From an uncultured virus (IMG/VR IMGVR_UViG_3300042868_013265) (taxonomy: Duplodnaviria; Heunggongvirae; Uroviricota; Caudoviricetes), in the IMG/VR virus record IMGVR_UViG_3300042868_013265, positions 62,001-84,420 of that record: a stretch of 22,420 nt of DNA; one strand, written 5' to 3'. Each line of letters opens with the position of its first letter. Positions within the stretch are counted from its first letter, which is position 1. A program made the position numbers and the translations under genes. Under the pieces are notes generated by a model. That model did not search any database, was not told where the DNA came from, and saw only the letters and a list, made by a program, of their open reading frames with translations. This document shows positions 1 to 16,707 of this stretch, piece after piece.

Positions 1-1
1 C

Positions 2-3000
2 ACAGGCTCTTCAGGCACATCGGGCTCGGCAGGTTCTTCAGGAACATCAGGCTCGGCAGGTTCTTCAGGAACATCAGGCACAGCAGGTTCGAGTGGTACT
101 TCAGGAACACGTGGTTCTTCAGGTTCATCAGGTTCTACAGGAACGAGCGGTTCAAGCGGAACAAGCGGTAGCACAGGTTCAAGCGGTTCAACGGGTTCGA
201 GCGGAACAAGTGGAAGTACAGGTTCTTCAGGCTCTACAGGCTCAAGTGGAACATCAGGTTCAAGCGGAACAAGTGGAAGCACAGGTTCAAGCGGCTCAAC
301 GGGTTCAAGTGGTACTTCGGGTTCATCAGGAACATCAGCATCAAGCGGAAGTTCAGGAAGTGCGGGTACCTCAGGTAGTTCAGGCACTTCAGGGGCAAAT
401 GGGTCGAGTGGCTCAAGCGGAACAGCAGGTTCTTCAGGAAGCGCAGGTTCTTCGGGTTCTACAGGTTCTTCAGGAACAAGCGGTTCATCAGGAACAAGTG
501 GTAGCGCAGGTTCTTCAGGCTCTACAGGCTCAAGCGGAACAAGCGGTAGCGCAGGTTCATCAGGCACATCGGGTTCTGCAGGCTCTTCAGGCACATCAGG
601 TGCAAATGGTTCAAGTGGCACAAGCGGTTCAAGCGGAAGCGCAGGTTCTTCGGGTTCTACAGGAAGTTCAGGAACCTCAGGTTCAAGTGGCACAAGTGGT
701 AGCACAGGTTCAAGCGGGTCAACAGGTTCAAGCGGAACGAGCGGTAGCGCAGGTTCTTCAGGAACATCAGGCTCGGCAGGTTCTTCAGGAACATCAGGCA
801 CAGCGGGCTCTTCAGGCACGTCAGGCACAGCAGGTTCAAGTGGTACTTCGGGAACACGTGGTTCTTCAGGTTCATCAGGTTCTACAGGAACAAGCGGTTC
901 AAGCGGAACAAGTGGAAGCACAGGCTCAAGCGGCTCTACAGGCTCAAGTGGTACTTCGGGTTCGTCAGGAACATCGGCATCAAGTGGAAGTTCAGGAAGT
1001 GCGGGTACCTCAGGTAGTTCAGGCACTTCAGGGGCAAATGGCTCGAGTGGCTCAAGCGGAACATCAGGGTCTTCAGGAAGCGCAGGTTCTTCAGGTTCTA
1101 CAGGTTCTTCGGGAACAAGCGGTTCATCAGGAACAAGTGGTAGCACGGGCTCAAGCGGTTCTACAGGCTCAAGTGGGTCTACGGGAACATCGGGCTCAAG
1201 CGGAACTTCAGGGGTAAATGGGTCAAGTGGTTCTTCAGGAACTTCGGGTTCTGCGGGCTCATCAGGAACGTCAGGTTCTGCGGGCTCTTCGGGAACGAGC
1301 GGAAGCGCAGGTTCAAGCGGAAGCACAGGTTCATCAGGTTCTACAGGCTCATCAGGAACGTCGGGTTCTGCGGGCTCATCAGGAACGTCAGGTTCTGCGG
1401 GCTCTTCGGGAACTTCAGGCACAGCAGGTTCAAGTGGAACATCAGGAACTCGAGGTTCTTCAGGTTCATCAGGTTCTACAGGCACTTCAGGCTCAAGCGG
1501 AACAAGTGGAAGCACAGGTTCAAGCGGGTCAACGGGCTCAAGCGGAACAAGTGGAAGTACAGGTTCAAGCGGTTCGACAGGTTCAAGTGGAACAAGTGGA
1601 AGTACAGGTTCATCGGGTTCTACGGGTTCAAGCGGTACGAGTGGCTCATCAGGAACATCGGCATCAAGCGGAAGTTCAGGAAGTGCAGGTACGTCAGGTA
1701 GTTCAGGAACATCAGGAGCAAACGGCTCATCAGGCTCATCAGGAACTGCAGGTTCGTCAGGTAGCGCAGGTTCTACAGGTTCTTCAGGTTCCTCAGGAAC
1801 TTCGGGTTCATCAGGAACAAGCGGAAGCGCGGGTTCAACAGGTTCATCGGGCTCAAGTGGGTCTACGGGAACATCGGGCTCAAGTGGCTCAAGCGGTACA
1901 TCAGGTGCAAATGGCTCGAGCGGCTCAAGCGGAACAAGCGGTAGTGCGGGCTCATCAGGAACTTCGGGTTCTGCAGGCTCATCAGGAACGTCAGGTTCTG
2001 CAGGCTCTTCGGGAACTTCAGGTACAGCGGGGTCAAGTGGAACGTCAGGAACGCGCGGTTCGTCAGGTTCATCAGGTTCAACGGGTTCTTCAGGAACTTC
2101 AGGCTCAAGCGGAACAAGTGGAAGTACAGGTTCATCAGGTTCAACGGGTTCAAGCGGAACCTCAGGCTCATCAGGAACATCGGCATCAAGCGGAAGTTCA
2201 GGAAGCGCGGGAACATCGGGCTCAAGCGGAACTTCAGGGGCTAATGGCTCGAGTGGAACAAGCGGTTCGAGCGGAAGCGCGGGTTCTTCAGGTAGCACAG
2301 GTTCATCGGGAACATCAGGCTCATCGGGTACGAGCGGAAGCACGGGTTCTTCAGGTTCTACGGGTTCAAGCGGAACAGCGGGTTCAAGCGGTACTTCGGG
2401 TTCTTCAGGCTCAAGTGGCTCTGCAGGTACATCGGGCGCAAATGGTTCTTCAGGAACTTCAGGTTCAAGTGGAAGCGCAGGCTCATCAGGGTCTACGGGC
2501 TCAAGCGGAACGAGTGGCTCTGCGGGTTCATCAGGAACAGCAGGAACTTCGGGGTCTTCGGGTACTTCAGGTACAGCAGGTTCAAGTGGTACTTCGGGTA
2601 CACGGGGTTCATCAGGTTCTTCAGGGTCTACAGGAACTTCGGGTTCAAGCGGAACTTCAGGGGCAAATGGCTCAAGTGGAACGAGTGGCTCAAGTGGAAG
2701 CGCGGGCTCATCAGGCTCTACGGGCTCAAGCGGAACAAGTGGTAGCACGGGTTCTTCGGGCTCTACAGGGTCATCAGGAACAAGTGGTTCTTCAGGTACA
2801 TCAGGCTCAAGCGGTAGCGCGGGTTCAAGCGGTAGCGCAGGAACATCAGGAGCAAATGGCTCAAGTGGAACGAGTGGTTCTGCAGGAAGCGCAGGTTCTT
2901 CGGGTAGCACAGGTTCATCAGGAACTGCAGGTTCAAGTGGTACGGCAGGTTCTTCGGGTAGTGCAGGCTCAAGCGGGTCTACGGGTTCAAGCGGAACTTC

Positions 3001-5977
3001 GGGTTCAAGTGGCTCATCAGGAACATCAGGAGCGAATGGCTCAAGCGGTTCAAGCGGAACAAGTGGTTCTGCGGGCTCTTCAGGCACATCAGGAACTGCA
3101 GGCTCAAGCGGAACATCAGGAACTCGAGGTTCTTCAGGTTCATCAGGTTCTACAGGCTCAAGTGGGTCTACGGGTACGTCAGGCTCGAGCGGCTCAAGCG
3201 GAAGCGCGGGTACCTCAGGGGCAAACGGCTCAAGTGGTACAAGTGGGTCTTCAGGAAGTGCAGGTTCTACAGGGTCTTCGGGTTCATCAGGAACATCGGG
3301 TTCAAGCGGAACAAGCGGAAGTGCAGGTTCAAGCGGCTCTACAGGCTCAAGTGGCTCTACGGGCACTTCAGGCTCAAGTGGCTCGAGCGGAAGTGCAGGC
3401 ACATCGGGTGCAAATGGCTCAAGTGGTACAAGTGGTTCTGCAGGAAGTGCGGGTTCAAGTGGGTCTACGGGTTCGTCAGGAACTGCAGGTTCCTCAGGAA
3501 CGAGCGGTAGTGCGGGCTCAAGCGGCTCTACAGGCTCAAGTGGGTCTACAGGTACGTCAGGTTCCTCAGGCTCTTCAGGCACATCAGGAACTGCAGGTTC
3601 AAGCGGAACATCAGGAACTCGAGGTTCTTCAGGTTCTTCAGGTTCTACAGGCTCAAGTGGCTCTACGGGTACTTCAGGTTCAAGCGGAAGCGCGGGTACA
3701 TCGGGTGCAAACGGTTCTTCAGGAACATCAGGCTCAAGCGGAAGTACAGGTTCAAGTGGCTCTACAGGGTCAAGTGGAACATCAGGTTCTTCAGGAAGTG
3801 CGGGTTCTACAGGTTCTTCAGGGTCTTCAGGAACAGCGGGTTCATCAGGAACATCGGCATCAAGCGGAAGTTCAGGAAGCGCAGGTACTTCAGGGGCCAA
3901 CGGTTCTTCGGGTACTTCGGGCTCATCAGGAAGCGCGGGTTCTACGGGTTCATCAGGCTCAAGCGGAACAGCGGGCTCATCAGGAAGCGCAGGTTCAAGT
4001 GGTTCTACGGGTTCAAGCGGCACCGCAGGTTCAAGCGGAACTTCAGGTACACGCGGTTCATCAGGCTCAAGCGGTTCAGCGGGTACTTCAGGTGCGAATG
4101 GTTCAAGTGGTTCAAGCGGAACGAGTGGCTCTTCAGGAAGTGCAGGTTCAACAGGTTCGAGCGGTTCTACGGGTACATCAGGCTCAAGCGGCTCAAGTGG
4201 AACGAGCGGCTCTTCAGGAAGTGCAGGTTCAACAGGTTCGAGCGGTTCTACGGGTACATCAGGCTCAAGTGGCTCAAGTGGAAACACGGGTGCTGCGGGT
4301 TCATCAGGAACTTCGGGTTCTTCAGGAAGCGCAGGGTCAAGTGGTTCTACGGGTTCAAGCGGAACGAGCGGCTCATCAGGTAGCGCAGGCTCTACGGGTT
4401 CAAGCGGGTCTACGGGTACTTCAGGCTCAAGCGGCTCAAGCGGAAATACGGGTGCGGCAGGTTCTTCAGGAACGAGCGGCTCATCAGGTAGCGCAGGCTC
4501 TACGGGTTCTTCGGGTTCATCAGGAACTGCGGGTTCTTCAGGTACGTCAGGTACAAGAGGTTCATCAGGCTCAAGTGGTTCTACGGGTTCAAGCGGCTCT
4601 ACAGGTACGTCAGGCTCAAGCGGTTCAAGTGGAAACACGGGTGCGGCAGGTTCTTCAGGAACGAGCGGCTCATCAGGAAGCGCGGGTTCTACGGGTTCTT
4701 CAGGTTCTACGGGAACTTCGGGTTCGAGCGGTTCAAGTGGAAACACGGGTGCGGCAGGTTCTTCAGGAACATCGGGCTCAAGCGGTTCGAGCGGTTCAAG
4801 TGGAAACACAGGTGCGGCAGGTTCTTCAGGAACATCGGGCTCAAGCGGGTCAAGCGGAAACACGGGTGCAGCGGGTTCTTCAGGTACTTCGGGCTCAAGC
4901 GGTTCAAGTGGAAACACAGGTGCGGCAGGTTCTTCAGGAACTTCGGGTTCGAGTGGAAACACAGGTGCAGCAGGTTCATCAGGAACATCGGGCTCAAGTG
5001 GAAACACGGGTGCTGCAGGTTCTTCAGGTACTTCGGGCTCAAGTGGAAACACAGGTGCAGCAGGTTCTTCAGGCACAAGTGGTGTTAGTGGTGCAGCGGG
5101 TTCTTCAGGCACAAGCGGTGTCAATGGTGCGGCAGGTTCTTCAGGAACTTCGGGCGCGAATGGTGCGGCAGGGTCATCGGGTACGTCAGGAACAAGAGGT
5201 TCTTCAGGAACATCAGGTGCAAACGGTGCGAACGGTTCATCGGGTACAAGCGGTGTCAATGGTGCGGCAGGTTCTTCAGGAACTTCGGGCGCGAATGGTG
5301 CGGCAGGGTCATCGGGTACGTCAGGAACAAGAGGTTCTTCAGGAACATCAGGTGCAAACGGTGCGAACGGTTCATCGGGTACAAGCGGTGCAAACGGTGC
5401 AGCGGGTTCTTCAGGAACGTCAGGCTCAAGTGGTAATACAGGTGCTGCAGGTTCTTCAGGTACGAGCGGTACGAGCGTAGCCGTGAGCGGTACAACAAAC
5501 AGAATCGTTAAGTTTACGGCATCTACGACCATAGGTAACGCAAACGCGTCCGACGATGGAACGACATTCGAAGTCTTGAATACAGTTGGATTTAAGGCGG
5601 CCAAGTCGTTAGCAGTAGGTGCTTTGTCACCGTCAGCAACCACAGGTCGAATTGATGCTTCAAACGACATCGTAGCGTTCTCTACATCAGACAAACGCTT
5701 CAAAGAAAACGTGAAGCGAATTGAAAACGCCCTCGAGAAAATCAAGACAATCGGTGGATACTCATTCGATTGGCGCGAGGAAGGCTTCGAGGCTCACGGA
5801 TTCAAGGGAAGTGATGTCGGAGTAATCGCGCAAGAAATCGAGTCAGTGTTGCCCGAAATCGTGAAGGTAAAAGCAAACGGATTCAAGGGTGTACGTTATG
5901 AAAAAATCATCGCCTTGGTAATTGAAGCAATCAAGGAGTTGGATGATAAAGTGGAAAAACTAAAAAACAATCAATAA
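2..5977 (+). CDS. Giant Gly-X-Y (Ser/Thr-rich, Pro-free) collagen-like fibre protein with C-terminal peptidase S74 chaperone; 5'-truncated by the window edge, >=1991 aa
   Basis: Frame +2 reads TGSSGTSGSAGSSGTSGSAG... from base 2. Gly codons stay in 9-nt register from 5 to 5468 (5463 = 607 x 9). The frame continues without a stop into ORF 5483..5977 (...GTSGTSVAVSGTTNRIVKF...). That ORF has S74 motifs SDKRFKENV, YSFDW, DVGVIAQEIESVLPEIV and VRYEKIIALVIEAIKEL. Confidence 0.93.
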   Translation, partial: TGSSGTSGSAGSSGTSGSAGSSGTSGTAGSSGTSGTRGSSGSSGSTGTSGSSGTSGSTGSSGSTGSSGTSGSTGSSGSTGSSGTSGSSGTSGSTGSSGSTGSSGTSGSSGTSASSGSSGSAGTSGSSGTSGANGSSGSSGTAGSSGSAGSSGSTGSSGTSGSSGTSGSAGSSGSTGSSGTSGSAGSSGTSGSAGSSGTSGANGSSGTSGSSGSAGSSGSTGSSGTSGSSGTSGSTGSSGSTGSSGTSGSAGSSGTSGSAGSSGTSGTAGSSGTSGTAGSSGTSGTRGSSGSSGSTGTSGSSGTSGSTGSSGSTGSSGTSGSSGTSASSGSSGSAGTSGSSGTSGANGSSGSSGTSGSSGSAGSSGSTGSSGTSGSSGTSGSTGSSGSTGSSGSTGTSGSSGTSGVNGSSGSSGTSGSAGSSGTSGSAGSSGTSGSAGSSGSTGSSGSTGSSGTSGSAGSSGTSGSAGSSGTSGTAGSSGTSGTRGSSGSSGSTGTSGSSGTSGSTGSSGSTGSSGTSGSTGSSGSTGSSGTSGSTGSSGSTGSSGTSGSSGTSASSGSSGSAGTSGSSGTSGANGSSGSSGTAGSSGSAGSTGSSGSSGTSGSSGTSGSAGSTGSSGSSGSTGTSGSSGSSGTSGANGSSGSSGTSGSAGSSGTSGSAGSSGTSGSAGSSGTSGTAGSSGTSGTRGSSGSSGSTGSSGTSGSSGTSGSTGSSGSTGSSGTSGSSGTSASSGSSGSAGTSGSSGTSGANGSSGTSGSSGSAGSSGSTGSSGTSGSSGTSGSTGSSGSTGSSGTAGSSGTSGSSGSSGSAGTSGANGSSGTSGSSGSAGSSGSTGSSGTSGSAGSSGTAGTSGSSGTSGTAGSSGTSGTRGSSGSSGSTGTSGSSGTSGANGSSGTSGSSGSAGSSGSTGSSGTSGSTGSSGSTGSSGTSGSSGTSGSSGSAGSSGSAGTSGANGSSGTSGSAGSAGSSGSTGSSGTAGSSGTAGSSGSAGSSGSTGSSGTSGSSGSSGTSGANGSSGSSGTSGSAGSSGTSGTAGSSGTSGTRGSSGSSGSTGSSGSTGTSGSSGSSGSAGTSGANGSSGTSGSSGSAGSTGSSGSSGTSGSSGTSGSAGSSGSTGSSGSTGTSGSSGSSGSAGTSGANGSSGTSGSAGSAGSSGSTGSSGTAGSSGTSGSAGSSGSTGSSGSTGTSGSSGSSGTSGTAGSSGTSGTRGSSGSSGSTGSSGSTGTSGSSGSAGTSGANGSSGTSGSSGSTGSSGSTGSSGTSGSSGSAGSTGSSGSSGTAGSSGTSASSGSSGSAGTSGANGSSGTSGSSGSAGSTGSSGSSGTAGSSGSAGSSGSTGSSGTAGSSGTSGTRGSSGSSGSAGTSGANGSSGSSGTSGSSGSAGSTGSSGSTGTSGSSGSSGTSGSSGSAGSTGSSGSTGTSGSSGSSGNTGAAGSSGTSGSSGSAGSSGSTGSSGTSGSSGSAGSTGSSGSTGTSGSSGSSGNTGAAGSSGTSGSSGSAGSTGSSGSSGTAGSSGTSGTRGSSGSSGSTGSSGSTGTSGSSGSSGNTGAAGSSGTSGSSGSAGSTGSSGSTGTSGSSGSSGNTGAAGSSGTSGSSGSSGSSGNTGAAGSSGTSGSSGSSGNTGAAGSSGTSGSSGSSGNTGAAGSSGTSGSSGNTGAAGSSGTSGSSGNTGAAGSSGTSGSSGNTGAAGSSGTSGVSGAAGSSGTSGVNGAAGSSGTSGANGAAGSSGTSGTRGSSGTSGANGANGSSGTSGVNGAAGSSGTSGANGAAGSSGTSGTRGSSGTSGANGANGSSGTSGANGAAGSSGTSGSSGNTGAAGSSGTSGTSVAVSGTTNRIVKFTASTTIGNANASDDGTTFEVLNTVGFKAAKSLAVGALSPSATTGRIDASNDIVAFSTSDKRFKENVKRIENALEKIKTIGGYSFDWREEGFEAHGFKGSDVGVIAQEIESVLPEIVKVKANGFKGVRYEKIIALVIEAIKELDDKVEKLKNNQ
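4118..4279 (+). repeat. 81-bp near-identical tandem duplication inside the fibre gene
   Basis: ggaacgagYggctcttcaggaagtgcaggttcaacaggttcgagcggttctacgggtacatcaggctcaag occurs at 4118 and 4199. Confidence 0.85.
5111..5390 (+). repeat. 135-bp tandem duplication (2 copies plus 10 bp) inside the fibre gene
   Basis: acaagcggtgtcaatggtgcggcagg... starts at 5111 and again at 5246. A third start at 5381 diverges after 10 nt. Confidence 0.9.
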
Positions 5978-6654
5978 TGGCAGTTCCATCATCAAACATA
6001 AGTATGACGGCTATCTATCAGGAGGCGAACGCAGGTTCGCCTCCATCAGATTTAGCGGTGAGCGACTTATTCAAAAAATCATATTTTGAAAGTAATGCAT
6101 TTGGTGGCTCCCTTACATTTAATGCTTGGGGACAATATGGGAATGCGAGTGGAGCAGATAGGATTTATGGATTAAGTGCAAGTGATACCAATAACAATTT
6201 CAATCAGTTTGCGTCAAAAGTTTATTATATGGATAATTCAACTTATGCAAACTATGTAGATATTATTAATAATTTGAGTCCCCCCGCTCCCCCCGCGCCT
6301 CCTTTTGATAATGACATTGATGTATTTTGTAGATTATATGATTCTACAGGTACACATATTTATAGTTCATTTTTCCAAAGCGTATTTGCAGGTGGAAGTG
6401 TATCGCAAATATTCAGTAATACCACTGAACCGATTTTGGCAGTAGCATATTGGGAGGTTCAGTTTCAGCCTGTCAGTGGAAGTTTTGGTGGTACAACTTG
6501 TAATATTGGCATCAATAATACAAGTGTAGTAAGTGGTGGAACTATTAATGCAACAGGTATTACAACTTTTGATTTCAGCACTTTAGGAAGCGTAGCAGTA
6601 GGCTCAAGTTCGTCAGGGTATATTGGTACTTACTTTGATATTAGTATTGGTTGA
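5977..6654 (+). CDS. Probable fibre-associated virion protein (tip/adhesin-like), 225 aa
   Basis: TAATG-coupled to the fibre gene. The N-terminus MAVPSSNISMTAIYQEA...LAVSDLF resembles the MAxPxSxxIS motif of proteins that often follow phage tail fibres. A Pro linker (PPAPPAPP) precedes a beta-rich S/T/G/aromatic C-terminal domain. Confidence 0.55.
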   Translation: MAVPSSNISMTAIYQEANAGSPPSDLAVSDLFKKSYFESNAFGGSLTFNAWGQYGNASGADRIYGLSASDTNNNFNQFASKVYYMDNSTYANYVDIINNLSPPAPPAPPFDNDIDVFCRLYDSTGTHIYSSFFQSVFAGGSVSQIFSNTTEPILAVAYWEVQFQPVSGSFGGTTCNIGINNTSVVSGGTINATGITTFDFSTLGSVAVGSSSSGYIGTYFDISIG

Positions 6655-6655
6655 T

Positions 6656-6663
6656 TAAATTTG
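6656..6663 (+). promoter_or_regulatory. Bacteroidota sigma-70 -7 element (TAAATTTG)
   Basis: Matches TAnnTTTG, 21 nt upstream of the ATG at 6685. Confidence 0.45.
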
Positions 6664-6684
6664 TACAAAATTAAATATGTAATT

Positions 6685-6942
6685 ATGGAAAAAATATTAT
6701 TAACCGAAGAGGAATTAAATGAAAGCAGAATCATTAGCCAAATTCAGACCGATTTGAATTCACACGTAACAAAGTTTACAAGAGAAATAGAATCGCTAAA
6801 ATTGAAACGTAAATACGCCCTTGAAGAATTGAATGAATTGGATGAAAAAAACAAAGTCTTTTTTAAGGGAATCACCAACAAATATGGGTATGTTAAAATA
6901 AACCTTGAAACAGGCGAAGTAACCCCAATAGATGAAAAATGA
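6685..6942 (+). CDS. Small coiled-coil hypothetical phage protein, 85 aa
   Basis: ATG at 6685 (MEKILLTEEEL...) is preferred over TTG 6661, which overlaps the promoter motif. Heptad-like helix ending KYGYVKINLETGEVTP. Confidence 0.75.
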   Translation: MEKILLTEEELNESRIISQIQTDLNSHVTKFTREIESLKLKRKYALEELNELDEKNKVFFKGITNKYGYVKINLETGEVTPIDEK

Positions 6943-7412
6943 TAGTTGTTTTTTATGGTAAAAGAAACTCAGGAAAGACAACACTGTGTCGTGAGTTTTA
7001 CGGTTGGGTGAAGCAAAATTTACCTCTTAGGTGTCACTATTTAGATGCAGATAAACTGCGATTTGTTTATGGGTTAAAAGGGTTTTCAGAACAGACGGAA
7101 AGGGCTTTAATACAAAAAGCGATGGAAATATCGCGTTATGAGGAAAGTTTAAATGACGTTGTTTTGATTAGTATTTCTTTTGCATATAAAGACCAAAGAG
7201 CAATATTCGAAGAAAACAAAGGGATTTTATGGGTTCCGTTAACACACGATGAGTCTAAAAGACCTACCAATAAAAAAGAATTTGAAAATCCTGAATTTGA
7301 AAAATTAGAGAATGAAATTAACACATCTGAAAATGATGTTAAATCGGCATTGAATATGGTAATTCAACGCTACAAAGATTTTTGTGTAACTTCGCAATAT
7401 AAGGGGAAATGA
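6939..7412 (+). CDS. Adenylyl-sulfate (APS) kinase-like P-loop kinase, shortened CysC-like, 157 aa
   Basis: Walker A GKRNSGKTT. LDADKLR (cf. CysC LDGDNIR), GFSEQTER (cf. GFSxEDR), ISFAYKDQR (cf. ISPYRxDR) and FENP (cf. YExP) occur in CysC order. Confidence 0.7.
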   Translation: MIVVFYGKRNSGKTTLCREFYGWVKQNLPLRCHYLDADKLRFVYGLKGFSEQTERALIQKAMEISRYEESLNDVVLISISFAYKDQRAIFEENKGILWVPLTHDESKRPTNKKEFENPEFEKLENEINTSENDVKSALNMVIQRYKDFCVTSQYKGK

Positions 7413-7630
7413 CAACTCAACAGCAACAAAGCGCAATGATTGAAAAATGGGTAAATCGCATACTTCTTGGAATATGCGCATTTTTCTGTGCTCAATTATT
7501 TGCGGATATGAAAACTCAACGTCAGGACATAGAAGAAGTGAAATTGAGTAATGCGAGAATTGAAACGGAAATAAAGTACATCAGAGAAATGGTGGAGCCG
7601 TATCGAAATAATAAAATAGTTAACAATTAA
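7409..7630 (+). CDS. Small single-TM plus coiled-coil membrane protein (holin-like or virion membrane protein)
   Basis: Hydrophobic ILLGICAFFCAQLF followed by heptads. ATGA overlap with the upstream gene. Confidence 0.65.
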   Translation: MTTQQQQSAMIEKWVNRILLGICAFFCAQLFADMKTQRQDIEEVKLSNARIETEIKYIREMVEPYRNNKIVNN

Positions 7631-7636
7631 AAAATT

Positions 7637-7939
7637 ATGCCAATACCTGTAGCAATAGCGGCAGCATTAATCACAACGGCAGGTAGTACGGCTGTAGGTG
7701 GTTTAGATGTTGTCTCAAAACGAAAACTTGAAAAAAACCTTGCTAAATTAAACGCTGCGGAGGCAGAGGCTCTTCAAAAGCAATTAGCAAAAGAAAAGGA
7801 CGCTCAAACCAAATTGATTTTATTGCAGGATGCTGCGGATAAAGCGCAAAAAAGGAGCACGACGAATATAATTATTGGCTCTACAATAGGTTTAATCGGC
7901 CTCATTGCTGCAATTATCGTGTTTAAAAAGAAAAAATGA
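7637..7939 (+). CDS. Small membrane protein: hydrophobic N-terminus, coiled coil, C-terminal TM with KKKK tail
   Basis: MPIPVAIAAALITTAG... and IIIGSTIGLIGLIAAIIVFKKKK. Confidence 0.8.
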   Translation: MPIPVAIAAALITTAGSTAVGGLDVVSKRKLEKNLAKLNAAEAEALQKQLAKEKDAQTKLILLQDAADKAQKRSTTNIIIGSTIGLIGLIAAIIVFKKKK

Positions 7940-8256
7940 TGGAGTTTTCAAAAGAAGTAAAAAACGCTGTAATTATTGCAGTTGCGACAATTACTTTATA
8001 TATGTTGTTAAAACCTAAAAAGAATGGTATAAGTAAGCCTATGAAGGCTACTAAAGATGAATTGAGTCAAAAACAAAACGCCCGAACTATTTTGGATGCT
8101 TACTTAAACGCGGTTGATGCAAAAGAATCACCAACAGCATTGCAGAAGTTGAATTCAATTTTTGCAGATGAATATTCGATGAAGGTATTTAAAACCAAAA
8201 GTGGTAGTTATGTTGCAAGGACTTTAGATGGTAAAGATGTATTGGTAGCAAAATAA
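7936..8256 (+). CDS. Hypothetical protein with N-terminal TM anchor
   Basis: AVIIAVATITLYMLL followed by KPKK. ATGA overlap. Confidence 0.8.
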   Translation: MMEFSKEVKNAVIIAVATITLYMLLKPKKNGISKPMKATKDELSQKQNARTILDAYLNAVDAKESPTALQKLNSIFADEYSMKVFKTKSGSYVARTLDGKDVLVAK

Positions 8257-8705
8257 TGGCCACGTTCTCTCCAATCATAACGGTTTATCCTAATGACGCA
8301 GTAAGAGTTACGAGCGTTTCGGATTTGACTTATGAAACGGTGAACGCAAGTGTTGGAACAGGATACTATTACGATTTTAAAAATTTTTATCAGTATTCAA
8401 CATCCTTAGAACAATTAATTGAACCAATCTACTTGCTCAAATTTAGTAAACAGGGGGACCGAAATGTTTACTATTTGAATAATACGATTGACCCATATCA
8501 AAAATCATCGGCATTGTCTGTAGATGCTGAATATCTTGATTATAGATTTGACTCTAACAATGCATTCATACCACGAATACTTGCAAACACATCATTATTT
8601 TACCGCTTTGATATTCAAGAACTTAGTAATGAAGATTTTTTGACTAAAGGTGAAAGTAATTTTGGATTGATTGATTTTTACGAAAACTACGAAATAGACT
8701 TCTGA
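8256..8705 (+). CDS. Hypothetical beta-rich protein, possibly structural, 149 aa
   Basis: TAATG-coupled ORF rich in Y/F/N/S/T; no motif recognised. Confidence 0.75.
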   Translation: MATFSPIITVYPNDAVRVTSVSDLTYETVNASVGTGYYYDFKNFYQYSTSLEQLIEPIYLLKFSKQGDRNVYYLNNTIDPYQKSSALSVDAEYLDYRFDSNNAFIPRILANTSLFYRFDIQELSNEDFLTKGESNFGLIDFYENYEIDF

Positions 8706-9067
8706 TGCCCGCCAAAAAAATCATATTGAACATAGAAAATCATACGCCCTATCCTGCGTTAATTTCTATTTTAGGTGGACTTCAAGACCCAAACCAATAT
8801 AATGTGAATTCCGCAACGGAATACTTATATGATATTGGAAACTTTAATTGGAATAACTCAAGTACTTGGACAATACAGTTTAAACGAGTTGGAGCAGCAA
8901 ACTTCAGTATCAAACAAGGTTCTACAGGTGGTAATCCACAACAATTTTTAATAGCCCTTAATCTTTCGTCTTTGGGTTTATTTAACTATATCAAAATCAG
9001 TGCAAACATTTCGTTGATTTACACTTTCAACGATTATTACGAGTTTGGTCAACTTACATTAAACTAA
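8705..9067 (+). CDS. Hypothetical beta-rich protein, possibly structural, 120 aa
   Basis: TGATG-coupled; ends right before a terminator hairpin. Confidence 0.75.
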   Translation: MPAKKIILNIENHTPYPALISILGGLQDPNQYNVNSATEYLYDIGNFNWNNSSTWTIQFKRVGAANFSIKQGSTGGNPQQFLIALNLSSLGLFNYIKISANISLIYTFNDYYEFGQLTLN

Positions 9068-9089
9068 AAACCACCCCGAAAGGTGGTTT
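9066..9089. terminator. Intrinsic terminator between convergent operons, probably bidirectional
   Basis: AAACCACC-ccgaaa-GGTGGTTT inverted repeat; A-run on the left gives a U-tract on the minus strand. Confidence 0.75.
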
Positions 9090-9183
9090 ACAGTCTGAAG
9101 GAACAGTCACTTCTCAATAGAATCTTTAAAATCGTCGAATTCAAAATACTTTTATATTTTGCAACAACGACACGAATTTAAAC

Positions 9184-9969
9184 TCAATCCTCTGTATATG
9201 CAAGTTTTGCATATAGTCCCTTTTTCGTAGGCTTTTTGTCATTTACAATAATAACCCTTTCTTCATCATCGAGAGTCAAAACTGCACCACCCTCAACTTG
9301 GTCATCAAAACTTAACGCTCTTGAACCTAAGGAATCTTTTGGCAACAGTTTCGACAATTGTTTCAGGACGATTTTTTTAAGCATCCAAAATTGACTGTCT
9401 TTTGCATCATTGAAATACAATTCATTCCTGTTTGGTAAATTGGCAACAATAGTTTCTAATTCTTTTTTTGACATCACCTTAAAAACCTTTTCTTCATCGC
9501 GGGTTTTTACCATTGCGTAAATGTGAGTAAGCGAAATGGATGTTCTCAAATCGTCTTTGGGTTTATGTCGTAAAATTGGCTCAAGTCCAAGTTCATAATC
9601 AAATTCATCCGCTTCGTGCACAGACTCGCACCAAATCGTTTTTACGCCATTATTTCGCATCAGGAGTGTAATCACACCTTTGTATCCCAAAATAGGCTTA
9701 ATATGCCCCTTATAAGGCAAAAAGAAGAACTCTCCAACAGAAGGATTGGGACTCAATCCTAATTCTGCGCAATGAATGATTGCCGCAAATAGGTTGCGTG
9801 GATTTTTTTGGAAGGCAAAGAGCATTTCTTCATTTCTTCTGACTTCAGTTAAAACGACCTGTTTAAATTGCGCAGGTGAAATCGAATGACTTTTTAACAA
9901 ATCAACCAACACCTTTTGTTCAAAGGTGTCAAGTTGTATGCTGAATTTAGTTAGTAGTGCGTTATCCAT
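9184..9969 (-). CDS. recT: RecT-family single-strand annealing protein
   Basis: AIIHCAELGLSPN...FFFLPY...ILGYKGVITL...VHEADEFDYELG...IYAMVK...VMSKKEL...MLKKIVLKQLSKLLPK matches the RecT pattern. Confidence 0.9.
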   Translation of the reverse strand: MDNALLTKFSIQLDTFEQKVLVDLLKSHSISPAQFKQVVLTEVRRNEEMLFAFQKNPRNLFAAIIHCAELGLSPNPSVGEFFFLPYKGHIKPILGYKGVITLLMRNNGVKTIWCESVHEADEFDYELGLEPILRHKPKDDLRTSISLTHIYAMVKTRDEEKVFKVMSKKELETIVANLPNRNELYFNDAKDSQFWMLKKIVLKQLSKLLPKDSLGSRALSFDDQVEGGAVLTLDDEERVIIVNDKKPTKKGLYAKLAYTED

Positions 9970-9976
9970 TTTTATA

Positions 9977-10192
9977 TTATTGCGATTGTAAAATACTAAG
10001 AGCCTCTTTCATTAGTCTGACTTTCTTTAAGTCATCCTGTGTGTACCCGTGAATGTCAAGGATGCGATTAAATGTTGTCATTTTTTGCTTCAGAATGTCA
10101 ATTGAATCGGACAATGATTCATTTACAAGCAACTCATTTACAATTTGTGTGGCTTCTTTACAATCAGGGAAAGGAATAAAATTTTCGTTCAT
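9977..10192 (-). CDS. Hypothetical helical protein, 71 aa
   Basis: TAATG-coupled to the upstream gene; fills the operon gap. Confidence 0.7.
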   Translation of the reverse strand: MNENFIPFPDCKEATQIVNELLVNESLSDSIDILKQKMTTFNRILDIHGYTQDDLKKVRLMKEALSILQSQ

Positions 10193-11409
10193 TATGGCTT
10201 GGGATTAATATCAATGAGTGATTTTTGACCGATGTGAATGAATAAATTGTCTTTGGTTAAAATCTGTTGCCTGTTTGGATATTCATCCGCAAATGTCAAT
10301 TCCCATCCGTGGTCTTTGTGAAATATTTTATTCTCGAAAACACGTCTGCGAAAAATTGAAGGATTGTTACCATAGTTGTTCATTTTAACTTCTTGCCATT
10401 TTAAAAATCCATTTTGCATTTCGTAAAAGTGCCTGTAATCTTTAGGGAAAGGGTTTTTCCAATAATATTCGTTCACAGAAGTTTCGGCTTTAATTTCATC
10501 CGTCTGAATATCAAATACCTGTGAAAACATAATTTGGTCAAATGCGGAATGCTTTTTCAAATAGTTAATGTGTTTACCCAAATCAAGAGGTCTTACGGAT
10601 TCCCAATCATCTTCAAGTAAAAATACAAACTCACTTGGACCCATCAAATGTTTAATCATATTGAATTTGTCAACGTAATCAAATTGACCATTATTGTTGA
10701 AAGTAATCAAATGGGCTTTTTCACCAAACAAGGCATCCAAATATAATTCCATTTTATATCGCTCTTCAGAAGTACTTCGGTCATCTAAAACCCAAACTTC
10801 ATTGAACATTGTACGGTAGTTTGGATTGTGTTTTTGTAGCGATTTGAGAGTCCGCATAAAGTAATCAAAACGTCTCCCTGAAGAAATTATCAAGTTAGGG
10901 GCAACGTGAGGCTCATAATTAATGTAATAGCCATATTCGTCATCTCCGAATAATAACTTCAAATTTGGGTATCGGCTTGCCATTATTTCGGGTGTTAAAT
11001 CGGGCTGATGGTGTGTCTCATAAATATTGCCTTCATATTCACCTTGTTCATCTAAATAAGGAACAGCAACTAAACATTTGATGTTGTACGTCTCGATTTG
11101 ACCCATCAATAATGTTGCATCAGATGGCGTAAGATGTTCAAGTACATCTCCCAAAATAAGATAATCATACATTAAAATATTGACTGTCATAATGTTTTGC
11201 TGATAAATGGTATTATATTTAGAAGCAAGGTTAAATTGAGCAATGTAAGGGTCCCAAATTTCAACAGCATCCATTGGGATTTTTAAAAGGTCTGCATAAG
11301 TCCCTGAACCCGCTCCAACATCAAGGACGCGGGGATTTGAGGTGTTTTGGAGTTCTAAGAGGATGTGCTCTCGAACATTGTGCTTGAATTTATTGTATGA
11401 GTATGGCAT
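10192..11409 (-). CDS. Fusion of a class I SAM-dependent methyltransferase (N-terminal) and a GT-A/GT2-like glycosyltransferase (C-terminal)
   Basis: N half: VLDVGAGSG and LILGDVLEHL. C half: IISSGRRFDYFMRTLKSL, VWVLDDRST, FVFLLEDDW (acidic metal-binding motif), NNPSIFRR and FIHIG. Confidence 0.8.
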   Translation of the reverse strand: MPYSYNKFKHNVREHILLELQNTSNPRVLDVGAGSGTYADLLKIPMDAVEIWDPYIAQFNLASKYNTIYQQNIMTVNILMYDYLILGDVLEHLTPSDATLLMGQIETYNIKCLVAVPYLDEQGEYEGNIYETHHQPDLTPEIMASRYPNLKLLFGDDEYGYYINYEPHVAPNLIISSGRRFDYFMRTLKSLQKHNPNYRTMFNEVWVLDDRSTSEERYKMELYLDALFGEKAHLITFNNNGQFDYVDKFNMIKHLMGPSEFVFLLEDDWESVRPLDLGKHINYLKKHSAFDQIMFSQVFDIQTDEIKAETSVNEYYWKNPFPKDYRHFYEMQNGFLKWQEVKMNNYGNNPSIFRRRVFENKIFHKDHGWELTFADEYPNRQQILTKDNLFIHIGQKSLIDINPKP

Positions 11410-11410
11410 A

Positions 11411-12205
11411 TTAGTAAAACACTTGTTTAATTTTGGGTAACAGGGCGCGTTGAGGGCAAGTCTCGTTTAAATGACATTTGTTGCATCTTTTCATCTCAGG
11501 ATATGCTTTCCATCCATTTGCTGATTTGATTTCTCTTTTAAGTGCTTGAGAGACATTTTTCACCCCTTCTAAATGCTCCATCTCCTTGCTTGGGTCTACC
11601 AACACTTCAAAAATGCGAACATCCATTGGGTCTTTGGTATTGAATACAAAAAAGTAAAAAGGCACATCCGTGGTTTTAAATTTTTCTTTAGCAATAATTT
11701 TGTAATGAACTGCCTGAGTCAAAATCTTTTCCTTTTGCTCAAGGAAGTCTTCGTGCCAACCCATTTCATTCCATTTGTCATCTACCAAGCCCGAATATTT
11801 CAAATCGATGATACACTTCTTTCCATTCCACTTTGCAATAATATCGGTTGTGCAAGACATATTCAATTTTGAACTCACCAATTTCTTTCCAAAACTGAGA
11901 ATTTTGATGTTCATCGCTTTGAAAATTGCTTTGCAAAAAATCGAACTTTGAAATGCTCTTTCGTAATCTTCTGAAAGTTTTTCTTTTGCGGTTCCTTTGT
12001 ACACTTTATCGGGCTCAGGCGGTGTTCCATCACCATAAGCGGGAAGTCCTCCCGTGGCCATATATTCGAAATATTGACCAAGTTTCATTGCTTTAGTGGG
12101 TGTAGATTGAATACCGTCGAGGTATTTTGCTTTCACAACTAAGCCACACTCTTCCTTTACCTTGTATTCGGCAAAAGATTTCATAAAGGATTGACTAATT
12201 TTCAT
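11411..12205 (-). CDS. PD-(D/E)XK exonuclease, Cas4/AddB-like with Fe-S cysteines; likely RecE-role partner of RecT
   Basis: ISQSFMK start, TTDII...IIDLKYS and QAVHY motifs. One N-terminal Cys (EECG) plus C-terminal CNKCHLNETC. Confidence 0.8.
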   Translation of the reverse strand: MKISQSFMKSFAEYKVKEECGLVVKAKYLDGIQSTPTKAMKLGQYFEYMATGGLPAYGDGTPPEPDKVYKGTAKEKLSEDYERAFQSSIFCKAIFKAMNIKILSFGKKLVSSKLNMSCTTDIIAKWNGKKCIIDLKYSGLVDDKWNEMGWHEDFLEQKEKILTQAVHYKIIAKEKFKTTDVPFYFFVFNTKDPMDVRIFEVLVDPSKEMEHLEGVKNVSQALKREIKSANGWKAYPEMKRCNKCHLNETCPQRALLPKIKQVFY

Positions 12206-12410
12206 TTGGGTTATGTTTTAAAAAATAAGTTTTGAAAAATGAATCGCTTACGCTCATTTGTACTAAAATCAGATTGCTCCAATTAATTGCAGCGTAGAAT
12301 TTGCCGTCTTTTTTTCGGAGCAGTACATCAAAACGTCGGCATACAAAATATTTGTTCTCTTCTGTCGCTGACAGGGCTTTGGTAAAATACTCTTCTACGG
12401 TGTTTTCCAT
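12195..12410 (-). CDS. Hypothetical protein, 71 aa
   Basis: Overlaps both neighbours in the leftward operon. Confidence 0.65.
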   Translation of the reverse strand: MENTVEEYFTKALSATEENKYFVCRRFDVLLRKKDGKFYAAINWSNLILVQMSVSDSFFKTYFLKHNPNEN

Positions 12411-12883
12411 AAGGGTAAAATATCAATTAGGGTTTGCCCCTGATTCAATACATAGCAATTTGATTCCCGTTGACGTTCAATCAACCAATCGTCCCAATTG
12501 TCCATTACAAGTGTTATCAAACTTTGGGGTGATTCACGTTGTTGCATTCTTTTGTAATATTCTTTTTTACAATTCAATGCAGGAATTACAATTGTAAAAT
12601 CTATGTAGTTTTGCTGCATACACTCACGAACATTTTCGTGACTACTCACAAACACGAAATCAAGAAAATCGTGCTTAATTTGAAATTTAATGTGGTCAAT
12701 ATAGTTTTGTGGGAAAGCAGGATTTGGTATTCTTGCCCCATTATCCGTTTTAAGGAAATCGCCATTAGGGTCCGTAAGCCAATTCCATTGACTTGAATCA
12801 CAGTCAACACACATAAAATTGGAATTGCGAGCCGCATAGGTCTTTCCAATCGCGGGAAATCCTGATATTATTTTTGTAGCCAT
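12395..12883 (-). CDS. Small phage P-loop (NMP-kinase-like) NTPase
   Basis: IISGFPAIGKT Walker A, DCDSS, FPQNYIDHIK, VFVSSH and KKEYYKRMQQR. Confidence 0.8.
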   Translation of the reverse strand: MATKIISGFPAIGKTYAARNSNFMCVDCDSSQWNWLTDPNGDFLKTDNGARIPNPAFPQNYIDHIKFQIKHDFLDFVFVSSHENVRECMQQNYIDFTIVIPALNCKKEYYKRMQQRESPQSLITLVMDNWDDWLIERQRESNCYVLNQGQTLIDILPLWKTP

Positions 12884-13137
12884 AAAAAATTACGGGTGTT
12901 AAAACCGATTTGATAATTTACTTCTTGATTAAATTTTGGGCGATTTTGCTCAATAAATTCAACTTCAAGTTGTTTGACATACACATCAAGCCATTCGCGT
13001 GCTTGAGAAGGAGTCTCAAAACTGCGGGATGGCTGTTTAATAAGAGGCAACCATAACAGATTAAAAATTCTTCTGTCAATCACGTACCCCCCTTGCGAAA
13101 ATTCGCGAATTCGGAATTGTAGTTTTTTTGTTTTCAT
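12868..13137 (-). CDS. Hypothetical protein, 89 aa
   Basis: ATGA-type overlap with the upstream gene; operon continuity. Confidence 0.7.
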   Translation of the reverse strand: MKTKKLQFRIREFSQGGYVIDRRIFNLLWLPLIKQPSRSFETPSQAREWLDVYVKQLEVEFIEQNRPKFNQEVNYQIGFNTRNFLWLQK

Positions 13138-13388
13138 ATGTTAGTTGTTTTTTTGGACCAACCCCTTCCATTCCACATCACTTGACCCGTTTTTGTTTCT
13201 TTAACGCTCACATCAATCACAAGAGTCTCAGAAGTCTCTCTAACCAAATTTGTCAATATATAACCTTTGTCTTTAAAATGGTCATCGTTACATACTTTTT
13301 CAAGGACCGCTCTTGCACTGTGCTTATTATGCGCCTCTACGCTTATTGGCTTGTCGATGTCAAGGAAATAATACTTGTAGATTTTCAT
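13134..13388 (-). CDS. Hypothetical protein, 84 aa
   Basis: ATG start, operon continuity, plausible composition. Confidence 0.7.
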   Translation of the reverse strand: MKIYKYYFLDIDKPISVEAHNKHSARAVLEKVCNDDHFKDKGYILTNLVRETSETLVIDVSVKETKTGQVMWNGRGWSKKTTNI

Positions 13389-13426
13389 TAACTTCGAAGT
13401 GATTTACTGTAATGGTAAGTCGTGTG

Positions 13427-13460
13427 AAAAGGGGGAGTTTTGCCAACTTACTCCCCTTTT
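13427..13460 (-). terminator. Intrinsic terminator hairpin
   Basis: AAAAGGGGGAGT...ACTCCCCTTTT inverted repeat directly after the stop of 13462..13800. Confidence 0.7.
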
Positions 13461-13461
13461 A

Positions 13462-13800
13462 TTATTTTCCGTAACCCAAATCTTTTTTTACCACCCTTGT
13501 GTGTTTTTGACGCGATAACCATTGCTCTCCGCGCAAATTAGGATTCTCTTCTTGAACCTTTTGCCATTGGCGGGCAATAGATGCTTGGTGGTCAAATTTT
13601 CCATCAGCATAATGAGTAAAAAACTCGGTTGCGCTTAATGTCTTAAAATCAATTTGATTGGTGGGGCCATTAATATGAAACCAATAGTTGCATATTGTTC
13701 GAAGTAAATTGTCACGGAGGGTTGCGTCCGATTCCAATAGAAGTTTTACATTGTGTTTTACGTCACCACGTTTTCCGTTTATTTTAAATGCTTGTGTCAT
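13462..13800 (-). CDS. Hypothetical phage protein, 112 aa
   Basis: VKLLLESDATLRDN...SIARQWQKVQEENPNLRG; ATGA-coupled to the upstream gene. Confidence 0.75.
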   Translation of the reverse strand: MTQAFKINGKRGDVKHNVKLLLESDATLRDNLLRTICNYWFHINGPTNQIDFKTLSATEFFTHYADGKFDHQASIARQWQKVQEENPNLRGEQWLSRQKHTRVVKKDLGYGK

Positions 13801-14180
13801 AAGTCAAATGAATCAATATCAAAAAATTGAATATGGTCTTTAATGTTGTCAAAAATTTGTCGGTGGGCTACAGACTCACCGTCTTTGTCACAACCGATTA
13901 TTAAACCGTTGTTAAAAAATGGTCCATAGACGTTGTCTTTAGCGGCTTGGAATGCAAACGCACCTTTAATATAGCCGTCGCCTTTGACAAGACTTTCCTC
14001 GTCAACAAAACAAGTGTCTATATGCGATTTAGATTCAACAGCAGAAACAATTGGTAGGTAAAAACCTTTTTCAATCATTTCGCATTCAAGACCTAACGCA
14101 TCATACATAGATTGTAGGCCACCTTCGATTTCGATTTCGTAAACCTCTTTGCTTACTACGTCAATTTTGATACATTTCAT
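13797..14180 (-). CDS. DUF3846-like phage protein
   Basis: GLQSMYDALG...IE...CFVDEESL...GLIIGCDKDGES pattern recalled from DUF3846-type proteins. Confidence 0.6.
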   Translation of the reverse strand: MKCIKIDVVSKEVYEIEIEGGLQSMYDALGLECEMIEKGFYLPIVSAVESKSHIDTCFVDEESLVKGDGYIKGAFAFQAAKDNVYGPFFNNGLIIGCDKDGESVAHRQIFDNIKDHIQFFDIDSFDL

Positions 14181-14184
14181 ATTT

Positions 14185-14355
14185 TTATCTTTTGGGTTTT
14201 AAGTTGTTCATCAATATTGAAATCCTTGCAGGTATGACAAATTCCATATTGCAGGAATCGCAACACTTGCCTAATACGTTTAATGGAAACGAATTGTTTC
14301 CGTGGCCCACAAATAGCACGTGGCAAATAGGGCATTTTTTTAGAGAGTTTCCCAT
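14185..14355 (-). CDS. Small Cys-rich putative Zn-binding phage protein, 56 aa (below the ORF-track cutoff)
   Basis: Manual translation MGNSLKKCPICHVLFVGHGNNSFPLNVLGKCCDSCNMEFVIPARISILMNNLKPKR* has CxxC...CCDxC and fills the operon gap. Confidence 0.8.
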   Translation of the reverse strand: MGNSLKKCPICHVLFVGHGNNSFPLNVLGKCCDSCNMEFVIPARISILMNNLKPKR

Positions 14356-14424
14356 TGTTTTCGATTTTTACAATTCAATATTACAAACAAAAACTTATTT
14401 TGCAAAATAATTTTTGTGAATGGA

Positions 14425-14832: not shown

Positions 14833-14837
14833 ATTTT

Positions 14838-15569: not shown

Positions 15570-15578
15570 TGTGATTTA

Positions 15579-15609
15579 CGAAATTAAGCAAACAAATATT
15601 ATTTTCAAA
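15579..15609 (-). promoter_or_regulatory. Bacteroidota-type promoter for the PolB-like gene
   Basis: Minus strand TTTG-N19-TAATTTCG, 9 nt before the ATG. Confidence 0.5.
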
Positions 15610-15618
15610 AATAATTTA

Positions 15619-16662: not shown

Positions 16663-16675
16663 TGGTGAAGGGATG

Positions 16676-16707
16676 CGAAGTTATAGTTTGTTGTATATGC
16701 GAGCAAA
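16676..16707 (-). promoter_or_regulatory. Bacteroidota-type promoter for the 347-aa gene
   Basis: Minus strand TTTG-N20-TAACTTCG, 13 nt before the ATG. Confidence 0.5.

Follow-up and report, generated by a model that had tools for sequence, protein, structure and literature searches.

The DNA analyzed in this paper is a 22,420-nucleotide stretch (hereafter the window) that comprises positions 62,001-84,420 of the 84,420-bp IMG/VR virus record IMGVR_UViG_3300042868_013265; genome coordinates in the text equal window coordinates plus 62000. The source is an uncultured lake-water virus, most likely a tailed phage. The window opens inside a giant gene, and our analysis suggests that the product of this gene is probably a trimeric, serine-O-glycosylated collagen-type fibre of the virion that would reach a length of up to ~1.3 µm. 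The evidence for such a putative fibre comes from an unbroken array of Gly-Ser/Thr triplets without proline, from a predicted trimerising domain on each side of this array, from an adjoining gene for a TibC/Aah-type O-heptosyltransferase and from the recurrence of this gene pairing in other viruses.

The Fibre Gene and Its Reading Frame

The fibre gene spans genome 51961-67977 (16,017 nt; 5,338 amino acids (aa); 19% of the record). Its start is an ATG at 51961, 10,040 nt upstream of the window, where it overlaps the preceding open reading frame (ORF) by 8 nt. An earlier note on this DNA, made from the letters of the window, had supposed correctly that the gene begins before it: window positions 2-5977 on the plus strand are the last 37% (the 3' third) of a single gene. 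Frame +2 is open on the plus strand from window position 2 to a stop at 5975-5977, and an in-frame stop was looked for and not found before that position.

An open frame alone is no evidence in this case, because five long ORFs overlap the array. The frame is fixed by its uninterrupted connection to the upstream domains and to the S74 domain, by ratios of non-synonymous to synonymous substitution (dN/dS) of 0.12-0.28 in the array, and by variants in length, of 9 nt and of 135 nt, that stay in frame. The other long ORFs across the array are compositional shadows, as had been proposed for those rich in Gln, Val and Leu: the minus-strand ORF at window 1..5745 contains 32% Pro and 22% Glu and is also Val-rich, and the plus-strand ORFs at 3..1217 and 1218..5480 are rich in Gln, Val and Ala. 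The G+C content is 54-57% in the array and 34-40% in the remainder of the window.

The Triplet Array

The main array contains 1,511 unbroken triplets (4,533 residues), in which the first position is Gly in 1,489, Ala in 22 and nothing else. Ser makes up 43.5% of the array, Gly 32.8%, Thr 14.5%, Ala 6.3% and Asn 1.8% (S 1972, T 658, A 287, N 81, E 20, R 16), so that Ser and Thr together account for 58%, or 2,630 residues per chain. None of the usual collagen stabilisers was found in the array, which has 0 Pro, 0 Lys, 0 KGE/KGD triplets and almost no charge. The strict Gly/Ala rule, kept over DNA that has diverged, argues for three closely packed chains rather than for a loose linker. For the 608 triplets that lie in the window an unbroken register with neither Pro nor acidic residues had been claimed. 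Both points hold (S 782, G 603, T 254, A 134, N 36, R 11, V 4, and no Pro, Asp, Glu or Lys), with the correction that the first position is Gly in 603 triplets and Ala in five, every one of them ASS, and that 11 Arg are present. The two profiles which had been named as a check both match: Pfam Collagen (PF01391) over the first 500 residues of the window's share with E 2e-73, and Peptidase_S74 with E 1.6e-16.

A collagen triple helix rises 0.286 nm per residue, at which the array would span ~1,296 nm as a triple helix. The ~0.5 µm estimated earlier referred to the window's part alone and falls short of the whole object: the full gene has 2.7 times the length seen in the window and carries 1,511 triplets in one run, corresponding to ~1.3 µm. 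The few charged residues are found in separate parts of the array; all 21 acidic residues lie within its first 470 residues (aa 668-1103) and the 16 Arg all come later (aa 1860-5124). Each Arg of the array stands in one context, G(T/A)AGSSGTSGTRGSSG. The fixed context GSSGTSGTRGSSG is seen for 16 of 16 Arg, 11 of these sites being in the window, and the spacing between sites is uneven (45-351 residues). Such an Arg-bearing motif may serve as a sequon or to mark the register. A fixed higher-order period of the array was also considered and dropped, as the autocorrelation is flat (0.50-0.54) and the sole recurrence is the unevenly spaced Arg motif.

Two Predicted Trimerising Domains

The C-terminal 166 residues of the protein are not collagen-like. 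They match 40 PHROG families (best E 9.5e-44), and 22 of the 25 listed matches, including every named family, belong to the 'tail' category. Peptidase_S74 (PF13884) matches over model positions 1-58 of 58 with 60.7 bits (cut-off 22). The residues S5243, D5244, R5246 and K5248 of the S-D-x-R-x-K motif are invariant in 10 of 10 aligned C-termini, and they include the Ser/Lys dyad which we take to act in S74 cleavage. The S74 domain also aligns to a solved phage long tail fibre tip (PDB 6f45) with E 5e-12. A three-copy model of aa 5101-5338 scored 0.93, compared with 0.00 for the best of 3 controls, with a contact agreement between runs of at least 68% and a partner pLDDT (predicted local distance difference test) of at least 77; in the calibration of such complex models 20 of 30 solved one-chain pairs passed this mark, as did 1 of 23 single chains. 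This pass may merely reflect the likeness of the domain to solved S74 trimers. With the S74 domain cleaved off, the mature fibre would have the tip as its distal end.

The S74 cap had been proposed in the earlier note and is supported by the Pfam match, the invariant motif and the three-copy model of the tip; what had been missed is a second candidate trimerisation domain, a knob that precedes the array. The knob family includes 2,830 representative proteins at E <= 0.001. Among 47 aligned relatives 19 match Pfam BclA_C and five match C1q, and the knob itself remains unmatched at E 0.01. An AlphaFold2 model of the knob (pLDDT 93.5) shows an all-beta jelly-roll, for which the best PDB matches are BclA C-terminal domains (3tyj, 1wck and 2z5w), F-BclA (9h38), C1q domains and TNF ligands; the BclA matches have template modelling (TM) scores of 0.62-0.69, normalised to the target. 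In a viral structure library this fold is common in uncultured Caudovirales proteins that are named collagen repeat, S74 or side-tail-fibre repeat.

At the other end of the protein, aa 3-59 of the N-terminal module are 45% identical to the N-termini of other fibre proteins of 3,811-4,543 aa. A separate search with this module gave three contig-end fragments as its sole matches.

Adjoining Glycan Enzymes

The earlier note had argued that a triplet chain of this kind needs modification, and this idea gains strong context from the upstream gene, since it is a heptosyltransferase gene that overlaps the fibre start. The encoded 716-aa protein matches NCBIfam TIGR04414, an equivalog model named 'autotransporter strand-loop-strand O-heptosyltransferase', with 302.5 bits (cut-off 200) and E 3.9e-90 over model positions 7-373 of 374, and it matches the sequence of the TibC crystal structure (PDB 4rap) with E 4.5e-54. 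In TibC, Asp110 is described as the catalytic base and Arg286, Trp305, Thr226 and Lys230 as binding the sugar (PMC4358343), and four iron-binding Cys are described there as required for the dodecamer (PMC4358343). When aligned to 4rap, the 716-aa protein keeps Asp110, Lys230, Arg286, Trp305 and the four iron-finger Cys; Thr226 is replaced by Ser, and Pro300, the stereoselectivity determinant, by Gly. Judged by these matches, the protein is a true full-length O-heptosyltransferase of the TibC/Aah family, and its N-terminal half is a GT4-type glycosyltransferase.

No autotransporter family was found among the ORFs scanned. This weakens the idea of a classical BAHT system at this locus, and does not weaken the idea that the enzyme works like one. 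As no heptose-nucleotide synthesis gene was seen among the same ORFs, the donor sugar would come from the host. Further glycosyltransferase and FkbM genes are located at both ends of the record, which in total has no fewer than six genes for glycosyltransferases and five with an FkbM domain. Together with hydrolase and other methyltransferase genes (Table 1), this number indicates that glycan chemistry is a major theme of the genome.

Recurrence of the Enzyme-Fibre Pairing

The trio of enzyme genes is kept upstream of the fibre gene in four close contigs and is absent from the flanks of the more distant fibre relatives. TibC-like genes in other viral records are 33-42% identical, and in five of the six viral lineages with enough flank a Gly-Ser/Thr triplet gene lies within ~6 kb of the TibC-like gene, a raw count that has no background rate of such genes for comparison. 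The five paired lineages are the fibre lineage described here, L055-57, L059, the phage Mel-JY01 and the megaphage LR756501; L054 and L058 are cut. In L055-57 the triplet protein (GSS/GTS, 1% Pro) has at least 1,701 aa with a run of 201 and is encoded 3.7 kb upstream of the TibC-like gene; L059 encodes a 1,241-aa protein with 30 such triplets 266 nt upstream of it, and LR756501 encodes a 699-aa protein with 19 triplets at a distance of ~3.6 kb. Metagenome-assembled genomes (MAGs) were also searched. A single TibC-like sequence as query found nothing in MAG contigs; an alignment-based scan gave 20 loci with a TibC-like gene, five of which have a Ser/Thr-rich triplet gene in the flank, a count that is equally raw. 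The taxa of these 20 loci are spread too widely to indicate a host; the nearest cellular TibC-like gene, with 45% identity, is from a Flavobacteriales MAG.

Mel-JY01 (PP395634.1) is a cultured Microcystis phage of the myovirus type. It has a plus-strand frame of at least 1,016 aa with GSSGTSGTRG-type triplets, which matches Pfam Collagen with E 1.4e-66 and runs off the start of the record; with the record ends joined it encodes 1,788 aa with a longest run of 149 triplets. A 1,226-aa fusion of a GT4 and a TibC-like domain lies ~1.7 kb downstream of the fibre frame, is 38.9% identical across the whole TibC-like domain, and the module as a whole is 7 kb from the large terminase. The deposited annotation of region 1-3052 shows instead minus-strand 'hypothetical proteins' rich in Pro, Val and Leu (1-651 and 739-2298); the fibre gene of this cultured phage has probably been mis-called. 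The decapeptide GSSGTSGTRG occurs in 13 copies in the Mel-JY01 fibre and in none in the L056 array.

Other relatives share parts of the fibre. The relatives of 2,268-2,702 aa have a 'beads on a string' organization with collagen runs of 7-430 triplets, and a 1,796-aa protein (L032) from other viral contigs combines collagen repeats with an S74 domain, its C-terminus being 57% identical. Searching through the S74 end for giant relatives gave 22 proteins of 2,935-9,342 aa, and none of the 18 that were inspected (2,962-5,999 aa) is a collagen array. Searching through the array gave four relatives at E <= 1e-10, with a longest run of 84 triplets, in a collection that probably lacks the fibre and its known relatives as called genes.

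Assembly, Variation and Selection

Another question that is raised by such a repetitive gene is whether its assembled length is real. The gene is found with 0 mismatches over 16,017 nt in two other contigs (84,705 and 37,011 bp). A third contig has an exact 135-nt deletion at the array's one repeated place, and a fourth encodes an intact 4,183-aa relative. Within the 13,599-nt array there are no exact repeats of at least 150 nt, and the repeated 127-mers, 19 in number, are all at one place near the 3' end, where the 135-nt variant maps. Array DNA is present in 20 public runs, nearly all of them labelled lake water, and 18 hold at least half of the sampled words. Four of these runs, all lake metagenomes, were examined: contigs cover all 30 bins in 4 of 4, and the depth of array pieces is near that of the single-copy flanks (e.g., 38-43 compared with 34.8 in run X1). 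Unique array pieces (280-742 nt) show 0 differences in three of the runs and 0-6 in run X16, in which the fibre gene carries a 9-nt in-frame insertion of one triplet (L012:3870) and scattered single-base variants. The variants of X16 are natural strain variation that keeps the register. Measured against the 4,183-aa relative, three segments of the array have dN/dS values of 0.12, 0.25 and 0.28, and the C-terminus gives 0.03 and the N-terminus 0.10; these values are rough because alignment within repeats is uncertain. The array is shown by this comparison to be under purifying selection.

The record ends in an 'inverted terminal repeat' of exactly 127 nt (genome 1-127 and 84294-84420, the latter being window 22294-22420). 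This is a usual k-mer length of assemblers, which indicates that the record is a de Bruijn assembly. Rather than proving a complete genome, the 127 nt may be what is left of a longer, genuine terminal repeat. The near-identical 84,705-bp record is colinear with this one, 362 nt longer at the left end and 77 nt shorter at the right. In a 26-kb contig (L025, IMGVR_UViG_3300008258_000028) a one-base frame change is seen ~490 nt from the contig start (1-493); an assembly error at the end of the contig, within the array, is the probable cause. Contig joints that were listed with sides of 19-24 letters were rejected as repeat artefacts.

Other Genes of the Record

The positions of the parts of the fibre gene and of the other genes discussed are collected in Table 1. 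In 9 related loci the conserved 225-aa ORF immediately follows the fibre gene, with 69-100% identity; it had no family match in scans of Pfam, PHROG and NCBIfam, and its AlphaFold2 model (pLDDT 42.3) is unusable. The 294-aa collagen-like protein and the 255-aa fibre-like protein encoded directly after it have the N-terminal motif EGNGLA in common. By their sequences, the RecT-family protein and the PD-(D/E)XK nuclease are a recombination pair of the phage type; Microcystis phages are among the sources of the stronger RecT matches (E 5e-28). Only weak hints to the host are given by these matches, by the Microcystis phage that carries the module and by the TibC-like gene of the Flavobacteriales MAG.

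The sole hint to packaging comes from the region at genome 33103-34911, where a 273-aa ORF weakly matches a terminase nuclease (E 0.0011) and may be a split or very divergent terminase. This ORF is preceded by a 325-aa ORF and a small helix-turn-helix protein. Neither baseplate nor tail-tube genes were recognised in the Pfam and PHROG scans. When compared with 50,697 phage records, window 5400-22420 gave no match in megablast, and there was no match for a 550-aa ORF in tblastn or for the terminase-like region in blastn. In the ESM Atlas the 550-aa ORF gave a lead of 0.89 to viral DUF7192 clusters.

Table 1. Positions of the parts of the putative fibre gene and of other genes of the record.
Feature	Position	Strand	Remark
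N-terminal module (aa 1-105)	genome 51961-52275	+	upstream frame walk
76 collagen triplets	genome 52276-52959	+	
Globular part, 102 residues	between the 76- and 14-triplet segments	+	
14 collagen triplets	genome 53266-53391	+	
BclA-C/C1q-like knob (aa 478-639, 162 residues)	genome 53392-53877	+	model and family matches
Main collagen-like array, 1,511 triplets (aa 640-5172)	genome 53878-67476	+	
Last 608 triplets of the array	window 5..5476	+	1,824 residues
Non-collagen tip, 70 residues (aa 5173-5242)	window 5477..5686	+	confident trimer-model contacts begin here
S-D-K-R-F-K motif (Ser 5243 to Lys 5248)	window 5687..5704	+	predicted S74 autocleavage site
Peptidase_S74 Pfam match	window 5687..5866; domain continues to the C-terminus at 5974	+	PF13884
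Conserved 225-aa ORF	window 5977..6654	+	start overlaps the fibre stop by 1 nt
716-aa protein, GT4-type domain and TibC/Aah-type O-heptosyltransferase	genome 49818-51968	+	overlaps the fibre start by 8 nt
587-aa protein with FkbM methyltransferase domain	genome 48058-49821	+	
659-aa protein, GT4-type glycosyltransferase and FkbM methyltransferase	genome 46068-48047	+	
294-aa collagen-like protein with Pro-free Gly-Ser/Thr triplets, followed by the 255-aa fibre-like protein	genome 44423-46071		
476-aa collagen-like protein, ~60 Gly-Ser-Gln triplets	genome 16658-18088		sequence
RecT-family annealing protein (Pfam E 3.3e-28) and PD-(D/E)XK nuclease (DUF3799)	window 9184-9969, 11411-12205	-	
405-aa methyltransferase-like protein	window 10192-11409	-	
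GDSL/SGNH hydrolase	window 17133-17771	+	
Further FkbM-family methyltransferase	window 21635-22276	+	

Alternative Explanations

One option is that the array owes its length to the assembly, the true gene being far shorter or variable and similar repeats being joined alike each time. The exact 127-nt terminal inverted repeat, as a mark of de Bruijn assembly, and the change of frame within the array near the contig end of L025 would fit such an artefact, and so would the Logan contigs (k = 31) of the four runs, which are fragmentary, show hundreds of short-sided joints and in no case span the array. Yet the array has no repeat of 150 nt or more and its repeated 127-mers are confined to a single place, the gene is identical in three records and varies in length only at that ambiguous place, its unique pieces have single-copy depth in the four runs, and the 4,183-aa relative was likewise assembled intact; we consider an artefact very improbable. 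The assignment to the virion raises a separate question. It is based on the IMG/VR label, on the tail-fibre-type domains and on the abundance of the knob in uncultured Caudovirales proteins. The tail-category PHROG matches and the small collagen-like and fibre-like genes just upstream would fit a tail fibre, but no gene for a baseplate, tail tube, portal or capsid was recognised. The record may instead not be the genome of a particle, or the protein may sit outside the particle, as a surface or secreted fibre of a plasmid-like or other mobile element, or as a product of the infected cell that acts in cell-cell adhesion or as a decoy coat. For this speaks that no capsid or portal protein was recognised by Pfam or PHROGs among ~80 ORFs, that the terminase is recognised weakly and that the 50,697 deposited phage genomes gave no match in megablast, nor in tblastn for the 550-aa ORF. 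Such a location is nevertheless improbable when every named family among the 25 listed C-terminal PHROG matches is a tail family, the knob is common in Caudovirales proteins with collagen, S74 or side-tail-fibre repeats, the same fibre-enzyme module lies 7 kb from the large terminase of Mel-JY01, and the record carries a phage-type RecT and nuclease pair.

A further explanation accepts the trimeric ends of the fibre and takes the array itself for a flexible, glycosylated, mucin-like 'bottle-brush' tether, or for another Gly-rich fold such as polyglycine-II bundles. With no Pro, no Lys, no salt-bridge triplets and near-zero charge, an unmodified chain would at best form a weak triple helix, and Lys-Glu/Asp clamps, which the array lacks, are argued in PMC11923368 to direct how long triple helices fold, across all domains of life and in viruses. 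Modelling of the repeat together with the tip, as the earlier note had suggested, succeeded for the tip, and the 72-residue collagen stub of the model has few confident contacts and lies mostly outside them. The content of 58% Ser and Thr next to glycosyltransferase genes also resembles a mucin domain. A disordered linker, however, needs no Gly at every third residue, and in the array this position is occupied by Gly or Ala throughout, a rule that holds in DNA diverged enough to leave no 150-nt repeat; in addition, the length variants preserve the triplet register and trimerising domains are predicted on both sides of the array. On balance we find a non-helical array rather doubtful. The role given to the enzyme meets evidence of its own that weighs against it, beside the lacking capsid genes, spanning contigs and stabilisers already named. 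The TibC-type substrates described in PMC4358343 are autotransporter beta-helices alone; the distant fibre relatives of 2,268-2,702 aa (L017-L022) have no TibC-like gene in their 10-kb flanks, the TibC-like gene of the megaphage LR756504 has no triplet gene nearby, 15 of the 20 MAG loci with a TibC-like gene lack one as well, and the rawness of the pairing counts also tells against the proposal. A glycosylated triple-helical fibre of the virion is still the explanation that we regard as probable.

A Possible Mechanism and Its Relation to Known Systems

A mechanism that fits these data can be suggested for the putative fibre. The two trimerising domains would bring three chains into register, after which the S74 domain would cleave itself at Ser 5243, and the triplet array would fold as a collagen-type triple helix of ~1.3 µm. 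In the absence of proline, hydroxyproline and Lys-Glu/Asp clamps, the array may draw its stability from dense O-glycosylation of Ser and Thr. Heptose from host ADP-heptose would be attached first, by the TibC-like domain; the GT4 domains would then lengthen the glycan, and methyl groups would be added by the FkbM-type enzymes. More speculatively, the fibre could protrude from the virion and widen its capture radius in dilute water, or cling to surfaces or appendages of the host. Tentatively, we can also propose a wider possibility from the sequences: proline-free Gly-Ser/Thr triplets may be a second substrate class of the TibC/Aah enzymes, with extended and methylated heptosylation of serine replacing proline, hydroxyproline and salt bridges in a triple helix of micrometre length, which would serve a lake virus as a 'fishing line' many particle lengths long. 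The candidate pair of enzyme and substrate is seen again in unrelated phages, Mel-JY01 included, and in MAG contigs.

Several parts of the proposed fibre have known counterparts. BclA of Bacillus anthracis and F-BclA of B. thuringiensis, which form glycosylated filaments on spores, have, as here, a hydroxyl-rich collagen-like stalk with a C1q/TNF-like trimeric jelly-roll. In BclA the knob is C-terminal and the repeats bear proline, whereas in the fibre the knob precedes a proline-free array of 4,533 residues, the stalk is far longer and capped by an S74 domain, and the adjoining enzymes belong to another family. BclA is described as O-glycosylated (PMC8968730), and the stalks of Bcl proteins are given there as 27-1,158 residues (PMC8968730). 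The phage fibres that are capped by S74, such as the long tail fibre tip of phage S16 (6f45), likewise carry this domain with its Ser/Lys motif at the extreme C-terminus, and the collagen and S74 relative L032 differs from the fibre array in having ordinary charged, Pro-bearing triplets. In this company the fibre is extreme in both length and composition. The Mel-JY01 fibre has the same triplet type and a GT4-TibC-like fusion, but is shorter, has another N-terminus and lacks the S74 cap.

The adjoining enzyme can be compared with those of the TibC-TibA and Aah-AIDA-I systems of E. coli. It keeps the catalytic base, the sugar binders and the iron finger, and like them it would modify many Ser of a long repetitive substrate. 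It differs in that the presumed substrate is collagen-like rather than beta-helical, and in being fused to GT4, encoded by a virus and changed from Pro300 to Gly. That sugars can replace hydroxyproline in a triple helix by means of hydroxyl side chains is described for the cuticle collagen of a vent worm and for (Gly-Pro-Thr)n (PMC11923368); (Gly-Pro-Thr)10 is reported there to be a random coil unless its Thr is galactosylated (PMC11923368). Those chains still bear Pro, whereas the fibre array is dominated by Ser, has no Pro and is known from its sequence alone. Prokaryotic collagen-like chains of up to ~2,000 triplets are described (PMC11923368), which means that length alone is not unprecedented here.

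Collagen-like phage fibres have long been known, for example orf028 of P-SSM2 (PMC1079782). Fibres with collagen and S74 domains are also known, and glycosylated filaments of the BclA type are well studied; what is likely to be new is the combination of a proline-free, near-uncharged run of 1,511 triplets with a trimerising domain on either side and with an enzyme of the TibC type, encoded by the virus, as its probable modifier. Within the literature searched we found no paper on a giant virus fibre of proline-free Gly-Ser/Thr triplets or on a virus-encoded TibC-type enzyme. The question is directly testable in Mel-JY01, which is in culture and carries a shorter version of the module, its gene being hidden by the annotation behind shadow ORFs.

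If the proposal is true, this would be a collagen-type fibre that breaks the accepted rules of stability, doing without proline, hydroxyproline and charge clamps, and to our knowledge its ~1.3 µm would rival the longest known collagens. It would also give the TibC/Aah enzyme family a new job and point to glycosylation as a general way in which long threads can be built from protein, a prospect of interest to work on biomaterials. For the phage itself, such a fibre would suggest a means of raising encounter rates with its host in dilute water.

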